Part shown: positions 8,441 through 28,058 of the stretch, piece after piece
Layout of the letters: each line of letters opens with the position of its first letter
Position numbering within the stretch: position 1 is the stretch's first letter
Assembly: GCA_014360755.1 (NCBI GenBank)
Contig: JACIWX010000006.1
Span: forward strand, 27,748-91,747
Reading direction: 5' to 3'
Origin: Chloroflexota bacterium
GTDB lineage: Bacteria > Chloroflexota > Anaerolineae > UBA2200
DNA length: 64,000 nucleotides
Notes under the pieces: model-generated
What the model was told of the DNA's origin: nothing
What the model saw: only the letters and a program-made list of their open reading frames with translations
Database searches by the model: none
Position numbers and translations under genes: made by a program

Positions 8441-9290
8441 CCAGTTACCATCGGGTAGAGCAGGAGATAGCCAATGCGCGGCTGGAAGCCCATCTGGTAC
8501 GGCGCAAGGTGAGCCGGAGTTAGCCGTAGTGGTGTTGACGAAGAACGAAGAGGGCAATATCCGCGATTGCTTGCAAAGCGTCTGCTGGGCTGATCGGCTG
8601 TATGTGCTGGACTCACTGAGCAGCGATGGCACGGTGGAACTGGCGAGCCAGGCTGGTGCGGAAGTGCGTCAACGTCCCTTTGTTAACTATGCGGATCAGC
8701 GTAATGCGGCTTTGGAGATGTTCCCTGCACAGTGGATTTTCTTTGTGGATGCCGATGAGCGCGGCACGCCGGAATTGGGCGAGGAAATACGGCGCGTCAT
8801 TCGGCAGGAGGATGCGGTGGGATGGTGGGTGCCACGACGGAACTATATTTGGGGACGTTGGATACGCCACGCAGGATGGTATCCGGATTACCAGTTACGT
8901 TTGCTGAAGCGGGGCTTTGCGCGCTATGACCCAATACGCGAGGTACACGAGATCGTCATCTTGAATGGCGCGGAAGGCTACTTACAGAATCCGCTGATCC
9001 ATTACAACTATGCCACCGTGCGCCAGTTTCTGCAGAAGCAGGATTTCTATGCCACTTATGAAGCCGACGTTTTCATCAAGCAAGGCATACGGCCTCGCCC
9101 GCACCATTTTGTCTCGCAGCCGCTGCGCGAGTTCCTCCGCCGCTATTGGACGCTGCAAGGCTACAAGGACGGGGGGCATGGGTTGTTGCTGAGCCTGCTC
9201 ATGGCTTACTACACCTTCATAGCCTACTGGCGGGCATGTAAGATGATTGATAGCCCATGCCACTGTGTAGGAACTGTTAGCAAGGGCTAG
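8430..9290 (+). CDS. Family 2 glycosyltransferase (LPS-core/WaaE-like).
   Basis: LAVVVLTKNEEGNIRDCLQSV...YVLDSLSSDGT. The true start is probably a GTG near 8527, after a GGAG motif. The track start at 8430 overlaps the previous stop. Confidence 0.8.
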   Translation: MCGSQLPSGRAGDSQCAAGSPSGTAQGEPELAVVVLTKNEEGNIRDCLQSVCWADRLYVLDSLSSDGTVELASQAGAEVRQRPFVNYADQRNAALEMFPAQWIFFVDADERGTPELGEEIRRVIRQEDAVGWWVPRRNYIWGRWIRHAGWYPDYQLRLLKRGFARYDPIREVHEIVILNGAEGYLQNPLIHYNYATVRQFLQKQDFYATYEADVFIKQGIRPRPHHFVSQPLREFLRRYWTLQGYKDGGHGLLLSLLMAYYTFIAYWRACKMIDSPCHCVGTVSKG

Positions 9291-9520
9291 GTTTCCGTCT
9301 GCATCTATTCACGCTGTAGAGGGATGGGGTCCAAGCGCCAGCATCCCAAGCCTCTCGCTTCTGTACGATCGTCTGCTCATTCCAAGCCCAAACCTCGCCA
9401 AAGATGGTGTTGTTCGATATACCCGAAAATTCAAAACTGGCGAAGAGCTGCGTGCCTCCGCTGGGCTGATGGGTCGGCCGTCGTCCGTAGCATCGCGGCT
9501 GAATTTTGTCAAAATGTGGC

Positions 9521-9549
9521 TTGTGCTTCCATCGCCTATATGCTATACT
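9521..9549 (+). promoter_or_regulatory. Putative sigma70-type promoter of the helicase-nuclease-recJ operon, nearly leaderless.
   Basis: TTGTGC (9521-9526), a 17-nt spacer, then TATACT (9544-9549). The ATG at 9561 lies about 5-8 nt from the predicted transcription start. Confidence 0.3.
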
Positions 9550-9560
9550 AATGCTTGATC

Positions 9561-11699
9561 ATGGCTGATATCGAATTAACCCCCGAACAGAAAAGTCTCG
9601 TTCTGATGCCTGTTGGTGAGCCACGCACGGTTTTCCTGGAGGGACCGGCTGGCTGCGGCAAGACGACGGTGGCAGTGCAACGGTTGCTCTACCTCCTGGA
9701 TGTGGGTGTGCGCGCCGATCACATTCTGGTATGGGTGCCGCAACGTTCACTAGGCTGGCCTTATGTTGAGGCACTCCGCCGTCCAACGATCCCTGCCGGA
9801 GCACGGGTGGATGTGCTCAGCGTGGATGGGCTTGCGCGGAGGGCGCTAGACCTTTTCTGGCCGGTGATCGCCGAACGGGCTGGTTTCAACCCCACGCAAG
9901 AACCCAGGTTCCTGACGCTGGAGACGGCACAGTACTATATGGATCAGGTCTTGGAGCCATTCATCCGGGAGGGGGCTTTCGGTGATGTGACGGTGTCGCG
10001 CAACCGTTTGCTGAGCCAGATTATTGATAACTTGAACAAGGCAGCCTTGGTTGGCTTTCCACACACAGAGATTGGGGCACGCTTGATCGCAGCCTGGAAT
10101 GGGCCCAGCAGCCGTGAGAGGGTGTACGAGGCGGTGCAGCGTGCGGCGAATGCCTTCCGTGAGTATTGTCTGCAGCACAACTTGCTGGATTTTTCGTTGC
10201 AAGTGGAGACGTTCATCCGTCATGTATGGCCGCAATCAGAATGCCGCGCTTATCTCCTGCGGCGCTACCGCCATTTGATTGCGGATAATTTGGAAGAGGA
10301 TATTCCTGTAGCCCATGATTTGCTGCGGGAGTGGCTGGAGCAAGCTGCCTCTGCTCTGTTGGTGTATGATCAGGATGGGGGTTTTCGGACTTATCTGGGT
10401 GCGGATCCCGAAGGGGCGCTGGCATTGGGAGAGCGGTGTGATCAGAGGGTGATCCTAGACAAGCCGTTTGTTCCCTCGCCAGCCGTGCAGGCGTTGGGCA
10501 ATGGCCTGGCGAAGCAAGCCACAGGGAAGCGCCCCCACCCAGCCGAACCTCTTCCCGATGCGACACAATTGGAAGAGGCGTTGCGCTTTGTGGAAGGGCA
10601 TTTCCATACCGCCATGCTGCACAATGTGGTGGAGGAGGTGCTGCATTTGGTGATGGATGAAGGCGTAGCGCCGGGCCAGATTGCGATATTGGCGCCCTTT
10701 GTAGATGATGCCCTACGCTTTACGCTCATGACGGAGTTCGAACGCCATGGCGTGCCGGTGCGTTCGCACCGTCCATCGCGCGCCTTGCGGGAAGAGCCGG
10801 CAGTGCGCTGCTTGCTGACACTGGCGCAATTGGCACATCCACAATGGGAGATGTGCCCACCGCGCAATGACGTCGCGCAGGCATTGGTGCAGGCAATCGC
10901 AGGTCTGGATTGGGTGCGTGCCAGTTACCTTACCGAAATTGTTTACACTACGAAAGAGCATCGTCCCCATTTGTATCCCTTTGGGCAGCTTCAACCAGAG
11001 GTGCAAGAGCGGATCACGTTCAGCCTAGGAACCCGCTACGGCGACTTGCTGCGCTGGATGGAAGCCTATATGGCAGCGCCGCCTTTGCCACTGGATCTGT
11101 TCTTTAGTAGGTTGTTTGATGAATTGCTGGCAAAGCCAGGCTACGGTTTTCATAATCATTACGATGCCGCGGCTGCCGCTGCCCACTTGATTGAGTCGGT
11201 GCGCAAATTCCGCTGGGCGCTGGATGTGGCGGATGTGGATGAATTGGGCAAGCGTTATATCCGCATGGTAGAAGGGGGAGTCGTAGCAGCGCAATACTTG
11301 CGCGGCTGGCGATCTGCAGAGCAGAATGCAGTATTCATTGCTCCTGCCTACACCTTTTTAGCCGAGAACCGCCCGGTTGATTACCAGTTTTGGCTCAATG
11401 CCAACAGCCTCTCCTGGGGGCGGCGCTTGTACCAGCCACTGACTCATCCCTTTGTGCTTACCCGGCATTGGCCGCCCGGACGCCGTTGGGACGAAGAGGA
11501 TGAGTTCCAGGCTGGGCAAACCATGCTGCGGCGTGTCGTGCTAGGGTTGCTGCGTCGTTGCCGCGTGCGGGTATATCTGGGGATCAGCGAGTTGAATCCC
11601 CGTGGCCGTGAGGAGCGAGGACCATTGTTGGATTGGGTGCAGCGGATGCTGCGCGAGGTTGCCCTCACCCCTAGCCCATCACCCGAGGATAGAGGGTAG
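9561..11699 (+). CDS. UvrD-like SF1 helicase paralogue with an intact Walker A but degenerate downstream helicase motifs (AddB/RexB-like inactive helicase).
   Basis: GPAGCGKTTVAVQRLLYLL resembles UvrD motif I. The later motifs are degraded: WVPQRS replaces the TFTN(K/R)AA motif, and LLDFSLQ replaces LLDFDDLL. No DExx or VGDxxQ motif was recognised. Confidence 0.8.
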   Translation: MADIELTPEQKSLVLMPVGEPRTVFLEGPAGCGKTTVAVQRLLYLLDVGVRADHILVWVPQRSLGWPYVEALRRPTIPAGARVDVLSVDGLARRALDLFWPVIAERAGFNPTQEPRFLTLETAQYYMDQVLEPFIREGAFGDVTVSRNRLLSQIIDNLNKAALVGFPHTEIGARLIAAWNGPSSRERVYEAVQRAANAFREYCLQHNLLDFSLQVETFIRHVWPQSECRAYLLRRYRHLIADNLEEDIPVAHDLLREWLEQAASALLVYDQDGGFRTYLGADPEGALALGERCDQRVILDKPFVPSPAVQALGNGLAKQATGKRPHPAEPLPDATQLEEALRFVEGHFHTAMLHNVVEEVLHLVMDEGVAPGQIAILAPFVDDALRFTLMTEFERHGVPVRSHRPSRALREEPAVRCLLTLAQLAHPQWEMCPPRNDVAQALVQAIAGLDWVRASYLTEIVYTTKEHRPHLYPFGQLQPEVQERITFSLGTRYGDLLRWMEAYMAAPPLPLDLFFSRLFDELLAKPGYGFHNHYDAAAAAAHLIESVRKFRWALDVADVDELGKRYIRMVEGGVVAAQYLRGWRSAEQNAVFIAPAYTFLAENRPVDYQFWLNANSLSWGRRLYQPLTHPFVLTRHWPPGRRWDEEDEFQAGQTMLRRVVLGLLRRCRVRVYLGISELNPRGREERGPLLDWVQRMLREVALTPSPSPEDRG

Positions 11700-11703
11700 G
11701 AAT

Positions 11704-14001
11704 ATGTTTCGACCACGACGGGGGCAGCAAGAGGTATTGGCTTACCGTGGGGGGCTGATGGGGGTGGCAGCAGTGCCTGGTAGCGGCAAGACGGAAGTGC
11801 TCTCCGCCCTGGCAGCAAAACTAGTGGCTACCAGCCTGGATGAAGGGCAGGAAGTGCTGATTGTTACCCTGGTTAATTCGGCGGTGGACAATTTCACCGC
11901 ACGCATCCGGAGATTTTTACGGGAGGAATACAAACTCCTGCCTGGTATGGGCTACCGTGTGCGCACGCTGCATGGCTTATCGCATGACATTGTGCGCGAG
12001 CGCCCAGGTCTGGTAGGATTAGCAGATGACTTTGCAATCGCGGATGAACGAGAAGCAAGGGGCATCCTCGAAGATGCGGTGTATTCCTGGTTGCGCACGC
12101 ATCCTGACTTGCTGGAAATGTATCTCAGCACGGAACTGGAAGAATGGCGCGTGCGCGTTGTTGCCAAAGACTGGTGGCCTGATGAGGCTTGCGAAGTGGC
12201 GAACGCCTTTATCCATCGTGCCAAAGACCGACAGTGGACGCCAGAGATGCTGCGGAGCTGGCTTTTGCTACGGGATGAACGTTTGCCTTTGGCGGAGTTT
12301 TGCATTGATGTCTATGCAGATTACCAGCGCAGTTTATCCTACCGCGGCAAAGTGGATTTCGATGATTTGGTGGCTTATGCGATTACGGCGCTGCGGTTGG
12401 ACAAGGATTATCTCGGGCGCTTGCAATATCGCTGGCCTTTCATTTTGGAAGATGAGGCGCAGGATTCGAGCGAGTTACAGCAGGACTTGTTGGCATTGCT
12501 GGCTGGGCCAAATGGGCGCTGGGTGAGGGTGGGCGATCCCAACCAAGCCGTGTACTACACTTTCACGACGGCTAACCCGCGCCTATTGCGCGAATTTTTG
12601 GAACGCCCTGAAGTGCAGACTGTAGAAATGTTGGAGTCAGGACGTTCAGCCCGCCCCATCATCGAGTTAGCCAATTATCTGTTGGATTGGACTGTGAACG
12701 AGCACCCGTTGGAAGAAGCACGGTTGGCTTTTCGACCGCAACATATCTTACCCACCGCTGAAGGCGATGCGCAGCCCAACCCGCCTGACGAAGAGTGTCG
12801 CATCTACTTTCATCCGGGGCGGCTGACACCGGATGGCGAAATACGCACAGTAGTCAAATCGCTCGCCAAGTGGGTGCCAGCGCACAGGGAGCAAACGGTT
12901 GCTGTGCTGGTGCCGGATAACGAGCGGGGTTTCAAGTTCGCTGAGGCACTGCGTCAAAAGGGCCTGGCTTGTGTGGAATTGCTCAATAGCACTGGGCCGA
13001 CCCGGGATACGGCAGGCATTTTGGAAGCGATTTTGATGCACTTGGCGGATCCAGACAACCCCAAACGGCTAGGACCGGCATTTCTGGCTTGGCATTGGCG
13101 CGAGCGGGTGGATAAGGAACGCTACCTGTATTTAACCCGGCTGTCGCGCTTGCTGGGGAAGTGTATGAAAGTAGAAGATTATCTATGGCCACGCCTGGGC
13201 GTGGATTGGCTGCGCGAGCAAGATTTTAGCGAGGATGATGAGGCATTTGCCCTCTTGGCTGAATTCCGCGAAAAGGCACAGCGCTGGCATAAGGCAGCAG
13301 GTTTGCCAATTGATCAATTGATACTCACTTTATCCCAAGATCTGTTCGATGAGCCGGCTGATTTAGCTCGTGCGTACCACTTTGCAGTAGTACTGCGCGA
13401 TTACAGCGAGGCTAACCCAGCGTGGCGTTTGGCTGATCTGGCGCAGGAATTGCATGTTATCGCGCGCAATGAGCGGCGTTTTATAGGCTTGTCTGCCGAG
13501 GACACGGGTTTTGACCCAGAACGCTACAAGGGACAGGTGGTGGTTGCGACCATGCATCGCGCCAAGGGGCTAGAGTGGGATCGCGTGCATCTCACAGCGG
13601 TAAATAACTATGATTTCCCTTCTGGGGAGGAGATTGACCGCTACAAGAGTGAACGCTGGTATGTACGCGGCGATTTGAACCTGGTGGCGGAAGCGTTGGG
13701 GCAATTGGAAGCATTGCGTCCTGGTGGAAAGCCGTATGTGGAGGGGGAGCCCTCTCGGAAAGCGCGCCTTGAGTACATCCGGGAACGATTGCGCCTTCTC
13801 TATGTGGGCATTACGCGGGCGAAACGAGAACTGATCGTAACGTGGAATACAGGCAAGAACGAAAGGGACCCTAAAACGCCGGCATTGCCTTTCACAGTTT
13901 TGCGCACCTATTGGGAAGGAACAGCCTCCAAAAAGTTCGCCGCATTGAGCCCACAGAAGGATGAACAGAAGGAGAAGGGAGGAGGAACGCATGGTCCCTG
14001 A
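11704..14001 (+). CDS. UvrD/REP-family ATP-dependent DNA helicase with no nuclease domain.
   Basis: Walker A AVPGSGKTEVL, motif II DEAQDSSELQ, motif III VGDPNQAVYYTF and motif VI ATMHRAKGLEWDRVHL. The ATG lies 2 nt after the upstream stop. Confidence 0.85.
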   Translation: MFRPRRGQQEVLAYRGGLMGVAAVPGSGKTEVLSALAAKLVATSLDEGQEVLIVTLVNSAVDNFTARIRRFLREEYKLLPGMGYRVRTLHGLSHDIVRERPGLVGLADDFAIADEREARGILEDAVYSWLRTHPDLLEMYLSTELEEWRVRVVAKDWWPDEACEVANAFIHRAKDRQWTPEMLRSWLLLRDERLPLAEFCIDVYADYQRSLSYRGKVDFDDLVAYAITALRLDKDYLGRLQYRWPFILEDEAQDSSELQQDLLALLAGPNGRWVRVGDPNQAVYYTFTTANPRLLREFLERPEVQTVEMLESGRSARPIIELANYLLDWTVNEHPLEEARLAFRPQHILPTAEGDAQPNPPDEECRIYFHPGRLTPDGEIRTVVKSLAKWVPAHREQTVAVLVPDNERGFKFAEALRQKGLACVELLNSTGPTRDTAGILEAILMHLADPDNPKRLGPAFLAWHWRERVDKERYLYLTRLSRLLGKCMKVEDYLWPRLGVDWLREQDFSEDDEAFALLAEFREKAQRWHKAAGLPIDQLILTLSQDLFDEPADLARAYHFAVVLRDYSEANPAWRLADLAQELHVIARNERRFIGLSAEDTGFDPERYKGQVVVATMHRAKGLEWDRVHLTAVNNYDFPSGEEIDRYKSERWYVRGDLNLVAEALGQLEALRPGGKPYVEGEPSRKARLEYIRERLRLLYVGITRAKRELIVTWNTGKNERDPKTPALPFTVLRTYWEGTASKKFAALSPQKDEQKEKGGGTHGP

Positions 14002-14860
14002 AGGCTTTGTCTTCAGCCAAAGCAGCCTGCAGGACTATATGGATTGTCCGCGGCGCTTCCAATTGCGCTATTTGGAGCAGTGTCTCTGGCCTGCGCCGGA
14101 GACGGCGGATGCACTGGATTTTGAACGGTTCATGCAGCGAGGCCAGGCGTTTCACCGCTTGTTGCGCCAGCTTTATAGCGGTGTGCCGCGGGAAGCCTTG
14201 GAGGCAGTGGCAATGGCTGATCCTGACTTGGCACGTTGGTGGCTGAATTATCGTCATGCCTCGCCACAGGATTTGCCAACTGCAGTACAGGAAGCGGAGG
14301 TGGCTTTGTCTGTGGCTATTGCGCTGCCTGAGCAGGGAGAGCGCGCTGAGGGCGGAGATGGACGCTTTCGCCTGGAGGCGCGCTATGATTTGCTGGCAGG
14401 GGAGCCAGGCGGACGTTGGGTCATTGTGGACTGGAAGACAGGGCAGCACCGCAACAGTCGCGCCTGGCTGCAGCAGCGGTTGCAGACACGTATTTACCCT
14501 TATGTGCTGGTACAGGCTGGCGCTATGTTCAATCAGGGTGAGCCGATTGCTCCACAGCAGGTGGAAATGCTGTATTGGTTTGCCGAGTTCCCTGCCCAGC
14601 CGGAGCGTTTTTCCTATAGTGAAGAGCAATTTGCTGCAGATGCCGCTTTTTTGGCTGATTTGGTGTACGAGATCGCAAGGCGGCCTGAGGAGGTATTCCC
14701 CAAAACAGAGCAGCGCCGCTTGTGTCGCTATTGCGTATATCGCTCTCTGTGCTGGACAGACGTGGAAGCTGGCTTGCTCGCTGAGGCGGGGGAGGTGGAA
14801 GCAGTTGAAGCCGCTTTGGAAGACCTCGACTTGGAAAGCATCGCCCCGATTCCGTTCTAG
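13991..14860 (+). CDS. PD-(D/E)XK nuclease of the Cas4 / AddB-nuclease type with an Fe-S cysteine staple.
   Basis: N-terminal Cys in DYMDCPRRFQLRY, IVDWKTG (DxK), QxxxY-like IYPYVL, and C-terminal CRYCVYRSLC (Cx2Cx5C). It overlaps the upstream helicase by 11 nt and has a GGGAGGAGG SD. Confidence 0.85.
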   Translation: MVPEGFVFSQSSLQDYMDCPRRFQLRYLEQCLWPAPETADALDFERFMQRGQAFHRLLRQLYSGVPREALEAVAMADPDLARWWLNYRHASPQDLPTAVQEAEVALSVAIALPEQGERAEGGDGRFRLEARYDLLAGEPGGRWVIVDWKTGQHRNSRAWLQQRLQTRIYPYVLVQAGAMFNQGEPIAPQQVEMLYWFAEFPAQPERFSYSEEQFAADAAFLADLVYEIARRPEEVFPKTEQRRLCRYCVYRSLCWTDVEAGLLAEAGEVEAVEAALEDLDLESIAPIPF

Positions 14861-14866
14861 AGAGGG

Positions 14867-17164
14867 TTGCTGATGAAATGGGTAGAGCCGCCGCCGGTTG
14901 AGGTGCCGGCAGAATTACAAGCAGCCGTGGGTGGGCATCCACTGGTGGCGAAAGCGTTGGTGGAGCGCGGCTTGAGCACGCCGCATGCTGCGCTGGCTTT
15001 TCTAGATCCAGCCTATTATCGCCCGTCCTCGCCACTAGAATTGCCTGATATGGCAGCAGCCGTGGAGCGATTACAGAGCGCCATTGCCCGAGGGGAACGC
15101 ATTCTCGTGTGGGGTGACTTTGATGTGGATGGTTTGACAGCCACGGCTTTGCTAGTGGAAGCACTGCGGGCGCTGGGGGCGCAGGTAGACTGGTACATTC
15201 CTGACCGTCGCACGGAATCGCATGGTGTTCATTGGCGCTCGTTGCAGCCTTTTCTGGGGCGGGGAGTACGCGTGCTCTTGACCTGTGATACAGGGATATC
15301 CGCGCACGAGGTGGTGGCGTTGGCGCAACACGCGGGATTGGATGTGCTCATTACGGATCACCACGCGCTACCCCCTACACTGCCGCAGGCACAGGCCATT
15401 GTAAACCCCCGGCGCTTGCCAAGCGAGCATCCCCTATACCATCTGTCCGGTGTGGGCGTAGCTTACAAACTCGCAGAAGCGCTGGGCGTAGGTGAAAAAG
15501 GGTTGGATTTGGTTGTGCTGGGGCTGGTGGCGGATGTGGTGCCGCTGCAGGGAGAGGTGCGCTATCTTGTACAACGCGGGCTACAGATGCTACGCCAAGT
15601 GAGACGTGTGGGGCTGCAAGCGCTATTAGAGGTCGCCGAAATCGGCCCCGATGCATTGGATGAGGATCAGATTAGCTATGCCTTAGCGCCGCGTTTGAAT
15701 GCCCTTGGCCGAATGACGGACGCTTCTGTGGGGGTGGAACTTTTCCTGACGGAAGACCTAGCCCGGGCGCGTGTGATCGCTGCGGAGATGGAGGCATGGA
15801 ATGTACGCCGTCAATTTCTCAGCCAGCAAGTGTTTGTTGCCGCGCAGGAACAGATTGAGAAGGACCGTTCTTTGTTGTCCCAGCCGGTGCTGGTGCTGTC
15901 CCATCCCCAGTGGCCCACTGGGGTGCTGGGTATTGCTGCCGGACGCCTAGCCGAGCGCTACAACCGGCCGGTGGTACTCCTCTCTGCGCCACCTGGTGGG
16001 ATGGCGCGTGCTTCCGCGCGCTCTGTGCCTGGCGTGGATCTCTATGCCGCATTGGCTGCACATAGCCGGCTGCTGGCTAGTTTTGGTGGCCACCCTATGG
16101 CGGCTGGCTTTTCTATTGCGCTTGATCGTATCCCCGAATTGAGACGTTTGCTGGTAGAGACGGTGGCAGCGCAGATTGGTGTGTTGCCACCAGAACGCGA
16201 GTTACCCATTGCAACCTACCTTTCCCTGCCCGATCTTACTTTGGAGTTGTTGGATGAGGTAGCGCGTCTAGCGCCGTTTGGGCCAGGCAATCCACCGTTG
16301 TATTTGGCATCACGGCGGTTGCGTGTGACCGCCGAGCGCACTATTGGACGCATAGGCGAACATCGCCGGTTGGAGGTACAGGATGAAGAGGGACATGCAT
16401 TGCCAGCAGTGTGGTGGCAAAGCGCTGATTTGCCTGTGCCCGAGGGTCTTTTTGACCTGGCTTATGTGCTGCGTGCAGGGAATTTTGCCAGAGAGCGTAC
16501 TCTCTACCTGGAATGGATTGACGCGCATATAGTGGAAAAGCCAGTGGTGGAGAGGATTGTGCCCACCATAGCCATTGCTGTGGCAGACTATCGTACGGTC
16601 AAGGAGCCATTACCGATTTTACAGGCGTTGTGGGAAGAAGGGACGATGGCGCTTTGGGCAGAAGCGGTGGCAGTTCCTGGCTTTCCGGCGCATGGAAGGA
16701 GCGATCTGCAGCCCAACTCTATCCTGGTGGTATGGACGATTCCACCGGGTCCAAGGGTGTGGAAGCAAGTTCTGCATCGTGTGCAGCCCTCACAGGTATT
16801 TTTGTTCGGCGTGGATCCAGGATTGGATACCGTGGATGCCTTCTTACGCCGCCTGACGGGGCTGGTCAAGCATGCCCTCAGTGCTTACAATGGTAAATTG
16901 AACTGGGAGGCGCTGGCGACTGCCATGGCTCATTGCGAGGAGACGGTGCAAGCGGGCGTGCGCTGGTTGATGGCTCATGGATTGGTGTCTCCGGTGACAC
17001 AACAAGGGGATATCCTCATTGTGGAGGGCGGAGGGCACACTGATGAGGCGGCTGAGCGTCGGGTGCGGCGCGAACTGGAAGAGTTGCTGCACGAGACAGC
17101 GGCGTACCGCGCCTATTTTCGCGAGGCAGATGCAAGGAGGCTGGTGGCATGGGATATGTTGTAG
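14867..17164 (+). CDS. recJ: Single-stranded-DNA-specific 5'-3' exonuclease RecJ.
   Basis: DHH motifs (ILVWGDFDVDGLTATALL; LITDHH), a DHHA1 region and an OB-fold C-terminal extension. The start lies 6 nt after the nuclease gene stop. Confidence 0.9.
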   Translation: MLMKWVEPPPVEVPAELQAAVGGHPLVAKALVERGLSTPHAALAFLDPAYYRPSSPLELPDMAAAVERLQSAIARGERILVWGDFDVDGLTATALLVEALRALGAQVDWYIPDRRTESHGVHWRSLQPFLGRGVRVLLTCDTGISAHEVVALAQHAGLDVLITDHHALPPTLPQAQAIVNPRRLPSEHPLYHLSGVGVAYKLAEALGVGEKGLDLVVLGLVADVVPLQGEVRYLVQRGLQMLRQVRRVGLQALLEVAEIGPDALDEDQISYALAPRLNALGRMTDASVGVELFLTEDLARARVIAAEMEAWNVRRQFLSQQVFVAAQEQIEKDRSLLSQPVLVLSHPQWPTGVLGIAAGRLAERYNRPVVLLSAPPGGMARASARSVPGVDLYAALAAHSRLLASFGGHPMAAGFSIALDRIPELRRLLVETVAAQIGVLPPERELPIATYLSLPDLTLELLDEVARLAPFGPGNPPLYLASRRLRVTAERTIGRIGEHRRLEVQDEEGHALPAVWWQSADLPVPEGLFDLAYVLRAGNFARERTLYLEWIDAHIVEKPVVERIVPTIAIAVADYRTVKEPLPILQALWEEGTMALWAEAVAVPGFPAHGRSDLQPNSILVVWTIPPGPRVWKQVLHRVQPSQVFLFGVDPGLDTVDAFLRRLTGLVKHALSAYNGKLNWEALATAMAHCEETVQAGVRWLMAHGLVSPVTQQGDILIVEGGGHTDEAAERRVRRELEELLHETAAYRAYFREADARRLVAWDML

Positions 17165-18108
17165 GAGTGGACTTGGGCGGGACGCAGATCCGAGCCTGTC
17201 TAGCGGATATGAAAGGGAGTATTCTTTGCGAGGCTCGCCAGCCGACGCTGGCAAAAGAGGGGCTACAACCAGTATTGCAGCGTATGAAGGAAACGATCGC
17301 CCAAGTACTGCATGGCATCTCTGGAATAGAGGTCCTGGGCATTGGGGTAGGCTCGCCGGGGCCGCTTGATCCACGGACTGGCGTGGTGATTGCACCGCCT
17401 AACCTGCCGGGATGGCGCAATGTGCCATTGCGCGAGATCTTGTCGCAGGAATTTGGATTGCCGGTATATGTGAATAATGATGCCAATGTAGCAGCTCTGG
17501 CGGAGCAACGCTTCGGCGCAGGGCGCGGTTGTTCGGATATCGTGTATTTGACGATTAGCACGGGTATTGGGGGCGGTGTTATCAGCAGTGGGCAGTTGTT
17601 GCTGGGTGCGCATGGCTTAGCTGGGGAGCCGGGCCACACCACTGTCGAACCTGCGGGGCCACGCTGTAATTGTGGCAACGTAGGATGCCTGGAAATGATG
17701 GCGGCTGGCCCAGCTATTGCCCGCCATGCGCTGGATCTGATGCAGCAAGGCCAGCATTCGACCTTGTGGGCAGTGGTGCAGGGTGGGATGGAACTCACAG
17801 CAGAGATGGTGGGCAGGGCGGCACAGGAGGGGGATGATGTGGCATTGCAGGCCGTTGCGCGCGCAGCCCACTACCTGGGGATTGGTGTGTTGAACCTCAT
17901 TCATATTTTCGACCCAGATCGGGTGATTTTGGGCGGTGGGGTGAGTAAACTAGGTTCCCTACTTTTTGACCCGGTGCGCGCCTGGGTGCGAGAACACGCC
18001 ATGACCGATTTGCAGCGTGAGACGCCTGTTGTGCCAGCAGCATTGGGGGATCAGGTCGGATTGCTGGGGGCTGTAGCATGGGCAATGGACAGGATTTCGT
18101 CCTTGTAG
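17149..18108 (+). CDS. ROK-family glucokinase.
   Basis: VGVDLGGTQIRACLAD at the N-terminus and the CNCGNVGCLE zinc motif. It overlaps the recJ 3' end by 16 nt. Confidence 0.85.
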   Translation: MGYVVGVDLGGTQIRACLADMKGSILCEARQPTLAKEGLQPVLQRMKETIAQVLHGISGIEVLGIGVGSPGPLDPRTGVVIAPPNLPGWRNVPLREILSQEFGLPVYVNNDANVAALAEQRFGAGRGCSDIVYLTISTGIGGGVISSGQLLLGAHGLAGEPGHTTVEPAGPRCNCGNVGCLEMMAAGPAIARHALDLMQQGQHSTLWAVVQGGMELTAEMVGRAAQEGDDVALQAVARAAHYLGIGVLNLIHIFDPDRVILGGGVSKLGSLLFDPVRAWVREHAMTDLQRETPVVPAALGDQVGLLGAVAWAMDRISSL

Positions 18109-18128
18109 TATAATCTCGTCGAAACTGC

Positions 18129-19019
18129 ATGAAAGGGGGAGGCATGGGCCTGAGTGACATTTTTAACATTGTATGGATTCTGTTCCTGCTGTCTACGTTG
18201 ATGCCAGCGTTGACCCGGCGCGCTATCGAGGCACGGCGGCGCATGGTCATTGATGCCATTGAACGTAAGCGTGGTTCCCGCCTGATTACGCTCATCCACC
18301 GGCAAGAGACGATGAGCCTGCTGGGCATTCCCATTAGTCGCTACATTGACATTGAAGACTCAGAGCAGGTATTGCGTGCCATCCGCTTGACGGCTGATGA
18401 TGTGCCGATAGACATTGTGCTGCACACGCCTGGAGGGCTGGTGCTAGCGGCAGAGCAGATCGCCTGTGCGCTCAGCCGGCATAAAGCGAAGGTTACTGTG
18501 TTTGTGCCACACTATGCCATGTCTGGTGGCACATTGATTGCCCTCGCTGCGGATGAGATTGTGATGGACCCCAATGGCGTGCTAGGCCCAGTGGACCCTC
18601 AATTGCAAATGCCGCAGGGCGGGGGCTATGTCCCGGCGGTCTCTGTGCTGGCTGCGCTCGAAGTGGATAATCCCAACCGCGATGACCAGACCCTTATCAT
18701 GGCTGATATGGCACGCAAAGCAATCCAGCAGGTGCACAATACAGTCTATACCTTGTTGCGCAACAACGGTATGGAGGAAGAAAAGGCGCAAGAGATCGCA
18801 CGGAAACTCAGCGCTGGGTGTTGGACGCACGACTATCCCATTTCCGCGGATGAGGCGCGTGAACTGGGATTGCCTGTTTCCGAGGACATGCCTAAGGAAA
18901 TCTATGCCTTAATGGACTTGTATCCGCAGGCAGGGCAAAGGCGTCCTTCCGTGGAGTTTATTCCGACACCCTATCGCCCTTCGCCAACCCGACCCGGACA
19001 GGGTGAGCCAGGCCGCTAA
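18129..19019 (+). CDS. SDH-family Clp-fold serine protease (S49-like), membrane-anchored.
   Basis: N-terminal TM helix, then ...HTPGGLVLAAEQIA...YAMSGGTLIALAADEIVMDPNGVLGPVDPQ, typical of the serine dehydrogenase proteinase family. Confidence 0.75.
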   Translation: MKGGGMGLSDIFNIVWILFLLSTLMPALTRRAIEARRRMVIDAIERKRGSRLITLIHRQETMSLLGIPISRYIDIEDSEQVLRAIRLTADDVPIDIVLHTPGGLVLAAEQIACALSRHKAKVTVFVPHYAMSGGTLIALAADEIVMDPNGVLGPVDPQLQMPQGGGYVPAVSVLAALEVDNPNRDDQTLIMADMARKAIQQVHNTVYTLLRNNGMEEEKAQEIARKLSAGCWTHDYPISADEARELGLPVSEDMPKEIYALMDLYPQAGQRRPSVEFIPTPYRPSPTRPGQGEPGR

Positions 19020-19792
19020 TGCGTATCCTGGTGATTACCCAAGGTGAATATGGCAAGCGCATGGTGCAGAATTTGCGTGCCCATGCGCCACCAGGATGGG
19101 TGATCGAAGAATGGCTAGCACCGGAGAATTTGCCTCTGGTGATGGATTATCCAGAGGAATATATCCCCGATGTATTGCCACCAGTGGATTTGATCCTTTC
19201 TTTGGGCGAGAACCCGGGTGTGGCTGAGCTCATTCCTGAGATAGCGAAACGCACCGGCGCCCGTGCTGCCATTGTCCCCATTGACCGCAAGGAATGGATG
19301 CCCAAAGGACTGGCACGGCAGTTAGGGCATTGGCTGGAGGACATTGGTGTGACAGCCGTTTTCCCCAAGCCGCTCTGTTCACTAACCGAGACACATTACA
19401 ATGTAGGGCGACACCGTGTGGAATACCATCATGACCTCGTTGCAGAATTCGCCCGTTTCTTTGGCCGTCCTCGCTTTATCCTCACCGTAGATCCATCCAG
19501 CAAGGCTATTGTCGAAGCAAAGGTAGAACGCGATGCGGTGTGTGGCTGCGCACGCCATGTTGCGGCGGGATTGGTTGGAGTGAACGTAGATGAAGCTGAA
19601 TTCCAGGCTGGCATGCTCCATCACCATTATCCCTGTTTAGCGGCGATGGGCATTGATGAGGATTTCGCCGATACCCTGATGCATGTTTCAGGCAATATCG
19701 CGAAAGAGGAAGTGAAAGCACAAATCAAGCCGTATCTTACCATCCAGTACTTTGTGCCACATGGCCGTGTGGAGGAGGGAAGTGATGAGTGA
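19019..19792 (+). CDS. Uncharacterised Cys-rich protein that abuts the upstream protease gene (1-nt TAATG junction), possibly DUF166/COG1810-like.
   Basis: 257-aa ORF starting at a TAATG overlap with the protease stop. It contains CGCARH and HHHYPC motifs. The family assignment is from memory only. Confidence 0.55.
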   Translation: MRILVITQGEYGKRMVQNLRAHAPPGWVIEEWLAPENLPLVMDYPEEYIPDVLPPVDLILSLGENPGVAELIPEIAKRTGARAAIVPIDRKEWMPKGLARQLGHWLEDIGVTAVFPKPLCSLTETHYNVGRHRVEYHHDLVAEFARFFGRPRFILTVDPSSKAIVEAKVERDAVCGCARHVAAGLVGVNVDEAEFQAGMLHHHYPCLAAMGIDEDFADTLMHVSGNIAKEEVKAQIKPYLTIQYFVPHGRVEEGSDE

Positions 19793-19806
19793 TGAGTGAT
19801 GAGTGG
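19781..19806. repeat. Heptanucleotide microsatellite (AGTGATG) of about 3.5 copies at the junction of two convergent gene ends.
   Basis: agtgatgagtgatgagtgatgagtgg. It supplies TGA stops in all three plus-strand frames for the upstream gene and abuts the TAA stop of the minus-strand DedA-like gene. Confidence 0.6.
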
Positions 19807-19807
19807 G

Positions 19808-20488
19808 TTATTTGCTGCCCGTGAGTTTCCAAGCCCATGCTTGGAGTTGATCGCCGTAGAGCAAAAACAATGCCGCGAGGAGGGCAGAGGCGGCGATCAG
19901 CAATGCCCACTGTGTGGTTGTAAAGTTCATGGCGTTGGCTCCCACCCAGCAGGAAACAAAAATACCTGGCAGTCGTCCTGCCATGGCGACCAGTACTAAC
20001 GCTGGGATGGGGATAGGAGACAAGCCAGCTACGAAGCAGGTTAGATCATCGGGCAAGAAGGGTATCAAGAAGACCAGCAGGAAGAAGAAAAGCCCACGGC
20101 GCTGTGCGCCATCGTCCAAGCGTTTCAAGGTAGGCGCAGGGGTCAAGCGCTCCACCAACGGACGTCCGAAAATCCGTGCGAGAAGAAAAGCGATTGCCGA
20201 TCCCAGTGTGGTGCCGGCTATACTGTACACAGTCCCCCAGACAACGCCAAAGAAGTAACCACTGACCAATCCCACTACCTGACCTGGAACAGGCGCCAGG
20301 AGCACTTGAGCCATTTGCAGGAAGACAACCGCGACGGGTTTCCATACTCCCCATTGGCTTACCCAATCGCGCAAGTGTTCTTGGTCTTGGAACAAAGCCC
20401 ATTGGTTTGGCAGGAACAAGGCGAGGAAGAGCACTGCCAGGAGGATGAACAACGCTATCCCAATGTGTATAGATGGATGGGTTTTCAT
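19808..20488 (-). CDS. DedA / TVP38-TMEM64 family membrane protein.
   Basis: 226-aa polytopic protein with ...FLPDDLTCFVAGLS... and the conserved DedA G-rich re-entrant region. Confidence 0.8.
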   Translation of the reverse strand: MKTHPSIHIGIALFILLAVLFLALFLPNQWALFQDQEHLRDWVSQWGVWKPVAVVFLQMAQVLLAPVPGQVVGLVSGYFFGVVWGTVYSIAGTTLGSAIAFLLARIFGRPLVERLTPAPTLKRLDDGAQRRGLFFFLLVFLIPFLPDDLTCFVAGLSPIPIPALVLVAMAGRLPGIFVSCWVGANAMNFTTTQWALLIAASALLAALFLLYGDQLQAWAWKLTGSK

Positions 20489-20529
20489 GTTTACCCGCTG
20501 TCCTGTGGTACGTTTAGGCTGCTGATAGC

Positions 20530-20556
20530 AATAACAAAGAAACCGGCAGATGCCGG
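20530..20556 (-). terminator. Possible intrinsic terminator of infA.
   Basis: On the minus strand: CCGGCA-tc-TGCCGG hairpin followed by TTTCTTTGTTATT. Confidence 0.35.
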
Positions 20557-20641
20557 CTTCTATGACAAACCGTATGATTCCACGGAAGATGCCAATTCCT
20601 TGCTACTTGCGATAGGAACGGGAACGTAGGGATAAATGCTA

Positions 20642-21950: not shown

Positions 21951-24044
21951 GTGAGGAGCATGGTTAAGAGGAATACATCGAAGAAGAACCTACAAGAAAT
22001 CATGCAGGAAGAAGGTCTATGCAAGGATGACCTTCTCAACTATCTGCGGCAAATGTTAGAGATTCGCTATTTCGAGGAAACTGTGTATGAACTCTTGGGT
22101 AAAAACCTGATCAAAGGGGCTTCGCATCTCTATGCCGGCGAGGAAGCAGTTGCCGTAGGCGCGATTTCCGCCCTGCGCGATGATGACTTGATTACCAGCA
22201 CACATCGTGGACATGGGCATTGTCATGCGCGAGGAGATAGCCTCGCCAAGACACCACAGGAGAAGCAAGAGCACCTGAACAAAATGATGGCGGAATTGTG
22301 CGGGCGTGCCACGGGGTATTGCAAGGGGCGCGGTGGTTCCATGCACATTGCAGATGTCGAGCGGGGCAATCTGGGCGCCACCGGCATTGTAGGTGGTAAT
22401 ATCCCTGTTGCCACAGGCGCAGCTCTGGCGGTGAAGATGCAAAATCAGGATCGGGTGGTGCTTTGTTTCTTCGGCGATGGCGCCTCGAACACGGGCAATT
22501 TCCACGAATCGCTGAACCTGGCTTCTGTTTGGAATTTGCCCGTAGTGTACATCGTGGAGAATAACCTGTATGGCATGTCCGTGCCCTTCGCCAAAGCCTC
22601 CAAGCTACCGGATGTAGCAGCGCGGGCTTGTGCTTATGGCATCCCGGGCGAAGTTGTAGACGGGATGGATGTGCTGGCAGTTCGCGCAGCGGTCAGGAAA
22701 GCGGTTGAACGTGCTCGGCGAGGCGAGGGTCCATCGTTGATTGAGTGCAAAACCTACCGCTGGTTTGGCCATTCGCGTTCAGATCCTTGTGTCTACCGTA
22801 CGCGTGAAGAGGAAGAACAATGGAAAAAGTGCGATCCCATCGTAGTGCTTGAGGAGCGGATGAAAGCAGAGAGCATTGCTACGGAGGAAGAGATCCTGGA
22901 CGTGGAGAGGCGGGCAGCCACTGCCATCAAGACTGCTACAGACTTTGCCCTGAACTCGCCGTTACCGCATCCATCTGAACTGTACCAGGATGTGTATGCT
23001 CCCAGCAAAACGACAGCAGCCGATATCGAAGCGGAGCGACAGTTGCGCCAAAGGGTGCGCAGCGATCCTAGTATGCGCCAGATACCGTACTGGCAGGCGA
23101 TTAACGAGGCTTTGCGCGAAGAGATGGACCGTGATCCACGTGTCTTTATCATGGGTGAGGATGTGGGTATCTATGGTGGGGCGTACGGAGTAACGCGTGG
23201 CCTGATCGAGGATTATGGTCCAGAACGTGTGCGGGATACGCCCATTTCTGAGGCGATTATTGGAGGAGCAGCGGTAGGTGCGGCGATGGCTGGCATGCGG
23301 CCGGTCGCAGAGATCATGTATGTTGATTTTACTCCGCTGGCGATGGATCAGATTGCCAACCAGGGAGCCAAGAACCGCTATATGTTTGGGGGCAAGACGA
23401 TTGTGCCGATGGTCATACGAACGGAAGGTGGGACAGGACGTTCCATTGCTGCCCACCATTCGCAGAGCTTGGAAGCGTTGTGGCTGCACTTTCCGGGCAT
23501 TTACGTCGTGATGCCGGCAACGCCTTATGATGCCAAAGGCTTGCTCAAGGCAGCCATCCGTGATGACAATCCGGTGATGTTCATTGAACATAAGATGCTG
23601 TATAAAGTGCAGGGGCCAGTTCCGGAGGGGGACTATCTCATTCCCTTGGGTGTCGCCGATGTGGTCCGTGAGGGAAGCGATGTAACGGTTGTGGCTTATT
23701 CGCGCATGCGTTATCGGGCTCTAGAGGCTGCCGATATACTCGCCAAAGAGGGCATTAGCGTTGAAGTGATTGATCCGCGTACACTGAAGCCGTTGGATTT
23801 GGAGACCATTGTTAACTCGGTGAAGAAAACGGGGCGTTTGGTGGGGGTAACTGAAGCCTACAAGACAGGGAGCTTCATCAGCGAATTGTTCACTCTGGTG
23901 AACGAGGTAGCTTTTGATTACCTGGATGCACCTATGGTGCGCGTGGCTGGTGCGGATGTCCCTATTCCGATGAGCGAGCCGCTGGAGGCAGCGGCTATCC
24001 CCAGCACAGAGCAAATTGTCGCTGCAATACGCAGCATATTGTGA
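21951..24044 (+). CDS. 2-oxo acid (pyruvate/acetoin-type) dehydrogenase E1 component with fused alpha and beta subunits, TPP-dependent.
   Basis: The alpha-subunit TPP motif (GDGASNTG..FHESLNLA..NNLYGMSVP) is followed by a beta-subunit transketolase-like domain in a single 697-aa ORF. Confidence 0.9.
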   Translation: MRSMVKRNTSKKNLQEIMQEEGLCKDDLLNYLRQMLEIRYFEETVYELLGKNLIKGASHLYAGEEAVAVGAISALRDDDLITSTHRGHGHCHARGDSLAKTPQEKQEHLNKMMAELCGRATGYCKGRGGSMHIADVERGNLGATGIVGGNIPVATGAALAVKMQNQDRVVLCFFGDGASNTGNFHESLNLASVWNLPVVYIVENNLYGMSVPFAKASKLPDVAARACAYGIPGEVVDGMDVLAVRAAVRKAVERARRGEGPSLIECKTYRWFGHSRSDPCVYRTREEEEQWKKCDPIVVLEERMKAESIATEEEILDVERRAATAIKTATDFALNSPLPHPSELYQDVYAPSKTTAADIEAERQLRQRVRSDPSMRQIPYWQAINEALREEMDRDPRVFIMGEDVGIYGGAYGVTRGLIEDYGPERVRDTPISEAIIGGAAVGAAMAGMRPVAEIMYVDFTPLAMDQIANQGAKNRYMFGGKTIVPMVIRTEGGTGRSIAAHHSQSLEALWLHFPGIYVVMPATPYDAKGLLKAAIRDDNPVMFIEHKMLYKVQGPVPEGDYLIPLGVADVVREGSDVTVVAYSRMRYRALEAADILAKEGISVEVIDPRTLKPLDLETIVNSVKKTGRLVGVTEAYKTGSFISELFTLVNEVAFDYLDAPMVRVAGADVPIPMSEPLEAAAIPSTEQIVAAIRSIL

Positions 24045-24054
24045 AAGGAGAGAC

Positions 24055-25287
24055 ATGGCAGTCGAAGTCATCTTGCCCGTTTTGGGCGAAACCATGGATG
24101 AGGGTACAATTATCAAGTGGTTTGTGGATGTAGGCCAGCCCGTCCAAAAGGGAGAGCCTCTCTATCAAATTGAAACCGATAAAGCCATATTGGATGTAGA
24201 TGCACCGGCGAGCGGAGTGTTGCGCAAAATCTTTTATCCCGCGGGGAGCAAGATCCCTGTGCTGACTGTGGTGGGGCTGATTGCTGATCCCAATGAGGAT
24301 GTCAGCGTCTACGAGCAGGGTGGCTTAGAGCCTAGTAAAACAATATCAGAAACGGTAGCGGCTGAACGGAGGCCCATGGCAGAAGGTCCTCGTAAGGGAT
24401 TGATCCCCCCGCGTGTTTTTGCTTCTCCACGAGCACGAAAATTGGCAGCAGAACACGGCATAGACCTCACGCGTTTGAAGGGCACTGGGCCTGGAGGGCG
24501 CATTGTGGAACAGGATGTGCGCGCCGCTATCGCAGCCATGGAGGCAGAGATAAAGGAACCCGCGTTGGCGCCAGCAGCAGTGGAGGCAGTGCCATCGCCA
24601 AGTGAAAGTAAGCCGTTAGCCGGGGTACGGCGCATCATTGCTGAGCGCATGAGCACTAGTGCACATACCACCGCGCCTGTGACTTTGACTACTGAGGTGG
24701 ACGCAACGAATCTGGTACAACTGCGCACTTTGTTGAAGGAGCAATTAGAACCCACCCTAGGCTTTGCTATCTCGTATACAGACATCCTTGTGGCGATTGT
24801 TGCGCGGGCTTTGCGCGAATATCCGTACATGAATGTACGCTTGGTCCAAGACGAAATCCAACAAGTGGCGCAGGTTCACATTGGGGTGGCAGTGGATACC
24901 GAGAGAGGCTTGTTAGTACCTGTGATCCGACATGCAGATCAGAAAGGGATTACAGAGATTGCGCGAACTTTGCGCGATTTGGTAGCACGGGCGCGGTCTG
25001 GGAAGAGCTTGCCAGATGACCTGAGTGGAGGCACGTTCACCATTACCAACCTGGGGATGTATGATGTTGATGCGTTCACACCGATTATCAACTTGCCAGA
25101 ATGTGCTATCCTGGGGGTAGGGCGTTTGCGTGAAGTGCCTGCGGTTTACCAGGGGCAGGTCTGTGTGCGCCAGATGATGGTGCTGAGCCTAACATTCGAT
25201 CATCGTTTGGTGGATGGTGCACCGGCAGCGCGTTTTCTGCAGCGGATAAAACAACTGGTAGAACAACCTTATCTATTATTGGCTTGA
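24055..25287 (+). CDS. Dihydrolipoamide acyltransferase E2 component.
   Basis: Lipoyl domain IETDKAILDV, a peripheral subunit-binding domain and the catalytic DHRLVDGA motif. The SD is GAAAGGAG. Confidence 0.9.
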   Translation: MAVEVILPVLGETMDEGTIIKWFVDVGQPVQKGEPLYQIETDKAILDVDAPASGVLRKIFYPAGSKIPVLTVVGLIADPNEDVSVYEQGGLEPSKTISETVAAERRPMAEGPRKGLIPPRVFASPRARKLAAEHGIDLTRLKGTGPGGRIVEQDVRAAIAAMEAEIKEPALAPAAVEAVPSPSESKPLAGVRRIIAERMSTSAHTTAPVTLTTEVDATNLVQLRTLLKEQLEPTLGFAISYTDILVAIVARALREYPYMNVRLVQDEIQQVAQVHIGVAVDTERGLLVPVIRHADQKGITEIARTLRDLVARARSGKSLPDDLSGGTFTITNLGMYDVDAFTPIINLPECAILGVGRLREVPAVYQGQVCVRQMMVLSLTFDHRLVDGAPAARFLQRIKQLVEQPYLLLA

Positions 25288-25300
25288 CAGAGGAGGGAAC

Positions 25301-26689
25301 ATGACGATTCGTTGTGACATTGCGATTGTTGGAGCTGGTCCAGGTGGATATGTAGCTGCCTTACGGGCAGCACAACTGGGAGCCAAAGTGGTGCTTGTGG
25401 AAAAGGACAAGTTGGGAGGAGTTTGCCTGAACTGGGGGTGCATCCCGACCAAGACTTTGCTGCGCACGGCAGAGGTCCTCCGTTTGACACGCGAAGCTGC
25501 TGAGTACGGGGTAATGGTGGATGGTGTCAGGTTGGATTGGGCGGCAGCGCAGAAGAGGAAAGAGGGGGTTGTCCGGCGTCTGACCGGTGGAGTCAAATTC
25601 CTTTTGGAAAGGGCTGGCGTGCAACTGCTGTTTGGAACGGCGCGTTTTGTCTCGCCAACCGCTTTGGAGGTCGTCGGAGCGAATGGCCAGGAACGGGTGG
25701 AGGCAAGGGACTATGTGATTGCTACAGGTTCACGCCCCGCTTCTCTGCCTATTCCAGGGCTCGAGGGTCCAGGTGTGTTGACTAGCGATGAGGCTTTGGC
25801 TCTGGAGGCACTACCGGAAAGCCTGCTGGTCATAGGCGCAGGGCCGATTGGGGTGGAATTCGCGACATTGTTCCGTGCTTGTGGCGTTCAGGTGACGCTG
25901 GTAGAGCTGTTGCCGCGGGTGCTACCTACACTGGACGAAGATCTGGGTGGAGAAGTAGAGCGCGCATTGAAAAAGGCAAAGGTAGCGGTATATACAGGAA
26001 GCCAAGTCTCCAAAGTGGAGAGGAGCAATGGTAAATATACCGTTACCATTCAGCAAGCGGATCAGCAGAGTGCGGTTGAGGTGGATAAGATACTCGTCGC
26101 CGTGGGACGGCGGCCGAACGTGGAAGGGCTGGGGTTGGATGTGCTTGGGGTACAGGTGGAGAAATCCGGCATTAAGGTGGATGAATTTATGCGCACCAAT
26201 GTCCCCCACATCTACGCAGTTGGTGATGTGACAGGTGGCATCTTGTTGGCGCATGTCGCCATGCATGAAGGGGTTGTGGCTGTGGAGAACGCCATGGGCT
26301 TGCAACGCGCGATGAATTATGCTGCTGTGCCCAGTTGTGTGTTTAGTTCTCCGGAAGTAGCCAGCGTGGGATTGAGTGAAGAACAGGCGCGACAACAGGG
26401 CTATGACCTTCACATAGGGAAGTTTCCCTTCCGGGGGAATGGGAAAGCGCTGGCGCAGGGCGAGTATGAAGGGTTGGTCAAGATTGTGGCGGAGAGCAAG
26501 TATGGTCAGATCCTCGGTGTGCACATCGTTGGTCCTCATGCCAGCGACCTTATTCAGGAAGGCACTCTCGCATTGACTTTGGAAGCAACATTGGATGAAA
26601 TCGAAGTTACCATCCATCCACATCCCACCTTGAGCGAAGCAGTGGCTGAGGCTGCTCTGGCAGCGAAAGGACGTGCTTTGCATAGCTAG
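25301..26689 (+). CDS. lpdA: Dihydrolipoyl dehydrogenase E3.
   Basis: GAGPGGY FAD-binding motif, the redox disulfide [13 protein letters not shown] and the C-terminal HPHPTLSE motif. Confidence 0.9.
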
Positions 26690-26705
26690 GAGGTCTGGTT
26701 CGGCG

Positions 26706-28058
26706 ATGGCCGAGATCGTAGTGATTGGTGGAGGGTTGGCTGGTAGTGAAGCAGCATGGCAGGCGGCGCAGCGGGGCGTGCGTGTAACGCTCTATGAGAT
26801 GCGCCCTGCGGTGATGACGCCTGCACATCGCACTTCCTATCTCGCCGAGTTGGTGTGCAGCAACTCTCTTGGCTCGGATTTGCCCGATCGGGCGCCGGGT
26901 TTGCTGAAAGCGGAACTGCGCTATCTTAGGTCTTTGATCCTGGCGTGCGCGGATGAAAATGCAGTGCCTGCTGGGGGTGCTCTAGCAGTGGGGCGAGAGT
27001 CCTTTGCCCAAGCAGTTACGGCTAAGATCGAGGCACATCCCCTGATCTCTTTGCAACGTATAGAAGTGCAGCGTATTCCCAAGGAAGGGATTGTGGTTAT
27101 TGCCACAGGACCGCTTACTTCAGAGTCACTTGCTGAAGACATTGCGCGTCTGACAGGGCAAGAGTATTTATACTTCTACGATGCCATGGCTCCTATTGTT
27201 ACGCTTGAGTCCATTGACATGAGCCGGGCATTCCGGGCTTCCCGCTATGGGCGAGGCCAAGATGACTATATCAACTGCCCCATGACGCGTGAGGAATATG
27301 AGCACTTTGTGGACGAATTATTGAAGGCGGAGACAATCCCTTTGCGTGATTTCGAACGGGAGGATGAGCGTTTCTTCGAGGCATGCCTGCCGGTGGAGGT
27401 GATCGCACGGCGTGGGCGGGAGGCATTAGCCTTTGGCCCTTTGAAACCGGTGGGGTTGGTAGACCCGCGCACAGGCAAACAACCCTATGCAGTAGTGCAA
27501 TTGCGCCAAGACAATTTGGCTGGCACCTTGTACAATTTGGTTGGCTTTCAGACCAATTTGAAGTGGAGCGAGCAGAAGCGTGTCTTCTCGCTCATTCCAG
27601 GGCTGGAACATGCGGAATTTGTGCGCTATGGGCAGATGCATCGCAACACATTTATCAATGCGCCAACTTTGTTGGATGCGACGATGGAATGTCGGCGCCG
27701 GAGGGGCTTATTTTTTGCCGGGCAGATTACAGGGACTGAAGGATATATTGCCTCTACGGCCAGTGGCTATGTTGCGGGACTCAATGCTGCTCGCTTGGCT
27801 ATGGGGATGCCTTTGGTGGAATTTCCGCGTGTTACGATGCTCGGTGCACTTTGCCATTATGTGGCATCGGCAGAAGCCACAGGATTCCAGCCGATGAAGC
27901 CAAATTTTGGGCTGATGCCACCTTTGGATGACAGGCAGAAGGGCAAGCGGCGGCGGTACCAAGCATATGCGGAGAGAGCGCTGGCGGCTCTGCGGGATTT
28001 CGTCGCAGAGCATGGCATCCTTCCCGCATCCCTACATGAAGGGCAAGTGCCAGAGTAG
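26706..28058 (+). CDS. trmFO: Methylenetetrahydrofolate--tRNA-(uracil54-C5)-methyltransferase TrmFO.
   Basis: [29 protein letters not shown]...SNSLGS is the characteristic TrmFO/Gid N-terminus. Confidence 0.9.

Follow-up and report, generated by a model that had tools for sequence, protein, structure and literature searches.

The free-standing nuclease encoded here, which an earlier note made from the sequence alone had called a stand-alone Cas4-like enzyme, is the third of four conserved genes in a cassette that also encodes two SF1A-type proteins and RecJ, the last of which starts 12 nt after the nuclease stop codon (Table 1). On the basis of its likeness to characterised machinery, we consider it probable, at roughly 0.6, that gene 3 supplies the nuclease subunit of a module for DNA-end processing, encoded by four chromosomal genes and related to AdnAB and AddAB but split, with a single nuclease and a coupling to RecJ. 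By the same analogy, the cassette would most likely trim broken DNA ends for repair. The module is typical of the Anaerolineae, a class of the Chloroflexota.

Table 1. Features of the cassette and of its nuclease gene. Positions refer to the window, the whole 64 kb stretch of DNA analysed.
Feature	Position	Strand	Description
Gene 1	9561-11699	+	Degenerate SF1A (UvrD-fold) motor-like protein, 712 aa; 'hypothetical' in public records
Gene 2	11704-14001	+	UvrD/PcrA/Rep-type SF1A helicase, 765 aa; motor motifs all intact, no nuclease domain
Helicase-nuclease junction	13980-14001	+	Shine-Dalgarno AGGAGGA, nuclease ATG and helicase TGA; 11 nt overlap
Gene 3 (nuclease)	13991-14860	+	Free-standing PD-(D/E)XK nuclease, 289 aa
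Cys19	14045-14047	+	N-terminal ligand of predicted Fe-S cluster; invariant among 23 homologues
Catalytic core, D133 (motif II) to D147-W-K149 (motif III)	14387-14437	+	Invariant among 23 homologues
IVDWKTG (residues 145-151)	14423-14443	+	DxK motif
QTRIY (Q165-T-R-I-Y169)	14483-14497	+	QxxxY motif; Q165 and Y169 invariant among 23 homologues
CRYCVYRSLC (residues 245-254)	14723-14752	+	C245-x2-C248-x5-C254, three C-terminal ligands of predicted Fe-S cluster; invariant
Nuclease tail	14756-14857	+	Acidic linker (residues 256-278) and conserved C-terminal peptide; pLDDT 54-67 over region
Gene 4 (RecJ)	14873-17164	+	5'->3' ssDNA exonuclease, 763 aa; around 210 extra C-terminal residues past OB domain

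An intact, predicted Fe-S nuclease overlapping a helicase gene

A Pfam profile search matched residues 8-254 of the nuclease to positions 2-246 of the 247 in PF12705 (PDDEXK_1), with an E value of 2e-35 and a score of 123.4 bits against a cut-off of 22, far beyond the level expected by chance. In an alignment of 23 homologues, 48-81% identical to the query, residues C19, H55, D133, D147-x-K149, Q165xxxY169 and C245x2C248x5C254 are all invariant. The signature originally proposed for the protein, consisting of an N-terminal cysteine, the DxK motif, a QxxxY motif and a Cx2Cx5C cluster, is present just as described, and the concern that its cysteines or catalytic residues might not be conserved can be set aside. 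In the sequence alignment the DxK region falls opposite VVVDLKTGK of AdnA, which we take to be, within one residue by count, the site of the nuclease-dead D934A mutation; a structure search likewise matched the fold to Fe-S nucleases. Judged from these motifs, gene 3 encodes an intact, complete member of the Cas4/AddB superfamily, a PD-(D/E)XK nuclease in which all the catalytic residues are conserved along with the four cysteines of an AdnA/AddB/Cas4-type module, predicted to bind a 4Fe-4S cluster. By itself the protein is an ordinary member of PF12705, and annotated as such already. Members of the family occur in the genomes of at least 553 species; of 80 loci retrieved, 79 were from Chloroflexota.

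The nuclease start codon follows the Shine-Dalgarno sequence (13980-13986) after a spacer of 4 nt, and the aligned N-termini of 22 homologues fit this ATG rather than an in-frame ATG at 13961. The helicase ends in GTHGP, its TGA stop codon lying at 13999-14001, which confirms the 11 nt overlap reported previously. A stop/start overlap is kept in 31 of 49 orthologous junctions, the lengths of which range from -20 to +178 nt; an overlap of 17 nt is the commonest, and that of 11 nt is confined to the subclade of the query. The conserved overlap fits with translational coupling, whilst stoichiometric co-translation of the helicase and nuclease, which the earlier note took it to imply, is something we can only infer.

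The 3' end of the nuclease gene encodes a tail terminating in LDLESIAPIPF, for which the family consensus is LDFEQIAEIE[FY]-COOH. An aromatic last residue follows an acidic stretch in 76 of 80 orthologues, and a copy from Salinibacter, described below, keeps the tail as DLDDVEEIEF. A likeness to the tip of SSB (DDDIPF) was considered and dropped, as it fits only the query's subclade (ending in APIPF) and not the consensus. The tail is instead predicted, from its composition and conservation, to be a generic acidic/aromatic docking peptide. RecJ, which carries out 5' resection, binds the C-terminal peptides of SSB (PMC4846377).

Partner genes of the cassette

The AF2 model of gene 1 (pLDDT 86.9) has full-length matches to UvrD, PcrA, Rep, AddB, AdnA/B and RecB, with TMq values of 0.55-0.65. 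In a Foldseek search UvrD, PcrA, Rep, AddA/B, AdnA/B and RecB all scored alike, such that AddB-like and UvrD-like folds were not separated, and a profile search against the PDB returned weak UvrD matches, with AddB at E = 0.22. As the fold did not discriminate, the motif losses were read from the alignment. The Walker A motif GxxGxGK (G28, G31, G33 and K34) is invariant among homologues, but an invariant Asn (D242-N243) stands in place of the Walker B Glu, Gly or Ala in place of the motif III Gln, and Val in place of the motif IV Arg, all of them invariant losses. Given the retention of the UvrD fold and Walker A motif alongside the loss of catalytic residues, we propose that the protein is a non-hydrolysing partner.

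Gene 2 matches PF00580 (E = 8e-41) and PF13361 (E = 1e-20), and its translation shows the motifs GSGKT, DEAQD, GDPNQ, HRAKGLEW and VGITRA. Its best matches in the PDB are Rep, UvrD and PcrA, followed by AdnB and AddA. A Pfam scan found no nuclease domain in either SF1 protein. Gene 4 scores 474 bits against the RecJ model TIGR00644 (cut-off 396.9), carries the DHH, DHHA1 and RecJ_OB domains (PF01368, PF02272 and PF17768) and matches RecJ structures in the PDB with E values down to 4e-85. The genes are closely spaced, with 4 nt between genes 1 and 2, -11 nt between gene 2 and the nuclease, and 12 nt between the nuclease and recJ. A scan of positions 9000-20600 for promoters and terminators returned counts no higher than those from shuffled sequence, and no operon boundaries were drawn.

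Conservation and spread of the cassette

The four-gene cassette of helicases, nuclease and RecJ is conserved across the Anaerolineae. Upstream of the nuclease, a co-oriented homologue of the gene 2 helicase is found in 44 of 55 species-level loci, and a homologue of gene 1 in 33 of the 46 that are informative; recJ follows downstream, also co-oriented, in 42 of 58. The complete set of four is present and colinear in 25 of the 39 loci that are informative. In eleven of the 55 genomes no helicase gene adjoins that of the nuclease, yet recJ is still downstream in six of the eight such loci that are informative. The surroundings of the cassette consist of conserved housekeeping genes.

The whole cassette is also found, colinear and with 41-45% identity per gene, in another phylum, on plasmid pSR56 of Salinibacter ruber; hence it moves as a unit. 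A search of plasmids returned only two matches to the nuclease, one of them this Salinibacter cassette, and no relatives were found in 2.9 million viral contigs or in the INPHARED phage genomes. A phage or mobile-element origin was therefore rejected.

No helicase-nuclease fusion was found among the 150 best representatives of the nuclease family, nearly all of which are free-standing proteins of 240-394 aa. The sole long representative among them, P0377 (1112 aa), is a fusion with NERD and Ser/Thr-kinase domains, whilst P0244 reads as a C-terminal fragment of a helicase joined to the nuclease, and looks like a frameshift or fragment. This Rosetta-stone search of the best 150 did not reveal the SF1 partner of the nuclease.

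Comparison with known systems

The best match of the nuclease, in both sequence and structure, is the nuclease domain of AdnA, although the two are only around 18% identical. AdnAB has the same D...DxK site, with a four-cysteine Fe-S module like the one predicted here, and likewise combines an active UvrD-like motor (AdnB, comparable to gene 2) with a nucleotide-binding, motor-like subunit (AdnA, comparable to gene 1). As in AdnAB and AddAB, an active and an inactivated SF1A protein are paired, here encoded by adjacent genes 4 nt apart. However, both AdnAB subunits have a nuclease fused at the C terminus, whereas the cassette has one separate 289 aa nuclease, encoded after the active motor; furthermore, RecJ lies outside AdnAB, and the cassette encodes no 3'-strand nuclease. 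In AddAB of the Bacillus type, AddB is an inactivated SF1 protein retaining Walker A and carrying a 5'-strand Fe-S nuclease, and so resembles gene 1 plus gene 3; the structural alignment between gene 1 and AddB extends over around 750 columns (TMq 0.58). The cassette differs from AddAB in its unfused nuclease, and its SF1 proteins fall short of the equivalog models for AddA and AddB. Gene 2 reaches 59 bits with addA_Gpos, which has a cut-off of 708, and 64 bits with recB, for which the cut-off is 696, whilst gene 1 has no match to the AddA, AddB or RecB equivalog models.

Separate helicase and nuclease genes, in predicted operons of UvrD and pfam12705 proteins, have been described in Clostridiales by Hudaiberdiev et al. 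2017 (PMC5704561), also in a non-defence context and with a proposed role in repair. Compared by description, these differ in comprising two genes, in Firmicutes, without the degenerate SF1 gene or RecJ. CRISPR-associated Cas4 proteins, such as SSO0001 and the type I-C Cas4, have the same fold and the same layout of Fe-S and RecB motifs, but the nuclease exceeds them in length by around 80-90 residues and has, in addition, a helical region at its N terminus and a tail at its C terminus; it also lacks cas neighbours and falls below both curated Cas4 thresholds. ACE1, from cyanobacterial Argonaute-associated loci (PDB 9IAB and 9IAC), is another free-standing AdnA/AddB-like Fe-S PD-(D/E)XK protein, of around 270 aa, characterised as an endonuclease acting on ssDNA, which it threads through a narrow channel (PMC12094033). 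Its sequence match to the nuclease is marginal (E = 0.12), and it forms a complex with a long-A pAgo encoded alongside it, without a helicase partner, whereas there is no pAgo at the cassette.

A final parallel is with cas4, uvrD, recJcy and Synpcc7942_0992 of Synechococcus elongatus PCC 7942 (PMC10653904), the types of which mirror genes 3, 2, 4 and possibly 1. RecJcy is 775 aa in length, compared to 763 aa for RecJ, and Synpcc7942_0992, a COG0210 protein, 665 aa, compared to 712 aa for gene 1. Their shared mutant phenotype suggests a single pathway, and the likeness to the cassette is one of component type and size; the cyanobacterial genes are dispersed in the chromosome, and the phenotype concerns the restriction of both plasmid maintenance and transformation, together with Argonaute. 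A role of the cassette against foreign DNA would agree equally well with these genetic data on similar component types (PMC10653904) and with its position on a plasmid in Salinibacter.

Alternative explanations

The overlap of the helicase and nuclease frames could be read as a sequencing frameshift that had split the nuclease domain from a helicase-nuclease fusion, as could the joined entry P0244. We rejected such an artefact, the chance of which is negligible: independent assemblies of this species (L007-L009) show the same split, in which the nuclease gene has a ribosome-binding site of its own, as do 44 of 55 species-level genomes, the junctions vary in length as described above, and the two genes are also separate on the finished Salinibacter plasmid. 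It is slightly more plausible, but still highly improbable, that the protein is a solo Cas4 acting in trans in CRISPR adaptation, on behalf of a CRISPR-Cas locus at another place in the genome. Its superfamily is that of Cas4, and several homologues bear the JGI label 'CRISPR/Cas system-associated exonuclease Cas4'. Nevertheless its matches to the Cas4 models are weak and sub-threshold, at 28.1 bits for TIGR00372 (cut-off 65) and 20.2 bits for PF01930 (cut-off 22.7), so that of the two Pfam families suggested for it only PF12705 was recovered, and the name Cas4 in the strict sense is not supported for this protein, whose nearest structure is the nuclease domain of AdnA. As the earlier note maintained, there is no CRISPR context: neither TRF nor a direct-repeat search found a repeat-spacer array in the window, and 30 further ORFs from it contained only housekeeping Pfam families, with no cas gene or Argonaute. 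Together with the cluster genes and annotated neighbours, these cover nearly all window ORFs above around 220 aa; one of the five ORFs of 404-697 aa at 21951-28058 was scanned directly, and the first two have counterparts in the annotation of a matching contig, as genes for 2-oxoacid dehydrogenase E1/E2. The inspected flanks of related loci likewise contained no cas genes or CRISPR, and the fixed partners of the nuclease are helicases and RecJ rather than Cas1 and Cas2. A link to CRISPR was accordingly rejected.

Two functional alternatives deserve more weight. The cassette might act mainly against foreign DNA, degrading linear or replicating plasmid and phage DNA, which could coexist with a role in repair; it might even supply an Argonaute encoded at another locus with small DNA guides, a function that RecBCD and AddAB have in other bacteria. 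In S. elongatus, RSF1010 maintenance and transformation rise when any one of the Cas4-like gene, uvrD, recJcy and Synpcc7942_0992 is lost, as they do on loss of ago, and three of these four genes have near-identical fitness effects (2.24, 2.26 and 2.39) (PMC10653904). The cassette is made up of the same four types of component, the Salinibacter copy is plasmid-borne, ACE1, a partner of pAgo, is the second-best structural match of the nuclease, and the best PADLOC match of the latter is 'Aga_Cas4-like_Nuc' (E = 5e-9). However, the matches to PADLOC-DB v2 are generic, being Cas4 and Aga_Cas4-like for the nuclease, GajB (UvrD-like) for genes 1 and 2 and none for RecJ, and the cassette proteins matched no system-specific model. 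The scanned window ORFs, and those flanks of related loci that were inspected, contained no Argonaute or Piwi domain and no other defence gene; moreover, the neighbours are housekeeping genes, and the distribution looks vertical over the whole class. We therefore regard a mainly defensive role as unlikely. Less likely again is a Dna2-like role in replication or flap processing, at stalled or reversed forks, long flaps and gaps, rather than at two-ended double-strand breaks. The combination of a predicted Fe-S PD-(D/E)XK nuclease with an SF1 helicase is in keeping with this idea, as is the established action of UvrD and RecJ in the RecF pathway, where their substrates are gaps and stalled forks (cited in PMC10653904 and PMC5101192). 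The locus has no link to replisome genes, though, and a layout with two SF1 subunits is the hallmark of end-resection machines.

A proposed model for end processing

As a split end-processing machine, the cassette might function as follows. The gene 2 motor would bind a DNA end and translocate 3'->5' on the 3'-ended strand, with gene 1 as the non-hydrolysing partner, comparable to AddB or to the motor-like domain of AdnA. The free-standing nuclease would sit at the fork, its Fe-S module helping to split the strands, and would thread and nick the displaced 5' strand through its H55/D133/D147/K149 site. RecJ would then digest the 5' strand exonucleolytically, and the acidic tail may tether the nuclease to a partner, for instance RecJ or one of the SF1 proteins. 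As the cassette lacks a second nuclease domain for the 3' strand, RecA would be presented with a 3' single-stranded tail, and a Chi-type switch would not be needed. The Fe-S nucleases of AdnA and AddB are known to cut the displaced 5' strand, with the Fe-S subdomain holding the strands apart (PMC13000450, PMC12094033), and a repair role has already been proposed for unfused UvrD and PF12705 operons (PMC5704561). One feature runs against a pairing in the manner of AddB or AdnA: the nuclease gene follows the active helicase, not the degenerate one, and therefore the gene map does not suggest that the dead motor and the Fe-S nuclease are paired.

A bolder interpretation, and a rather doubtful one, is that the cassette constitutes a self-contained, horizontally transferable fourth architecture for end resection beside RecBCD, AddAB and AdnAB, as well as a clustered form of the cyanobacterial cas4/uvrD/recJcy/0992 set. 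Its parts would be a live SF1 motor, a dead SF1 motor, a free-standing Fe-S nuclease for the 5' strand only and a dedicated RecJ, with a Chi-type switch dispensable in the absence of a 3'-strand nuclease. Were this so, phyla without RecBCD and AddAB would have in it the missing equivalent of those enzymes, providing both DNA ends and guides.

Significance

Cas4-like nucleases that stand free outside CRISPR loci are common, and most of them lack an explanation; here the genomic context gives one such family a concrete job. We infer that the cassette is a variant of known AdnAB/AddAB-like machinery. If a split relative of these enzymes is indeed the correct reading, a large and poorly studied class of bacteria would process DNA ends unlike the three textbook enzymes, using a separate nuclease subunit, a single nuclease and a RecJ built into the operon. 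As S. ruber M8 can be cultivated, its plasmid-borne copy of the whole cassette offers an experimental handle, and the parallel with the cyanobacterial cas4/uvrD/recJcy/0992 genes suggests how bacteria lacking RecBCD and AddAB may make both resected ends and Argonaute guides.

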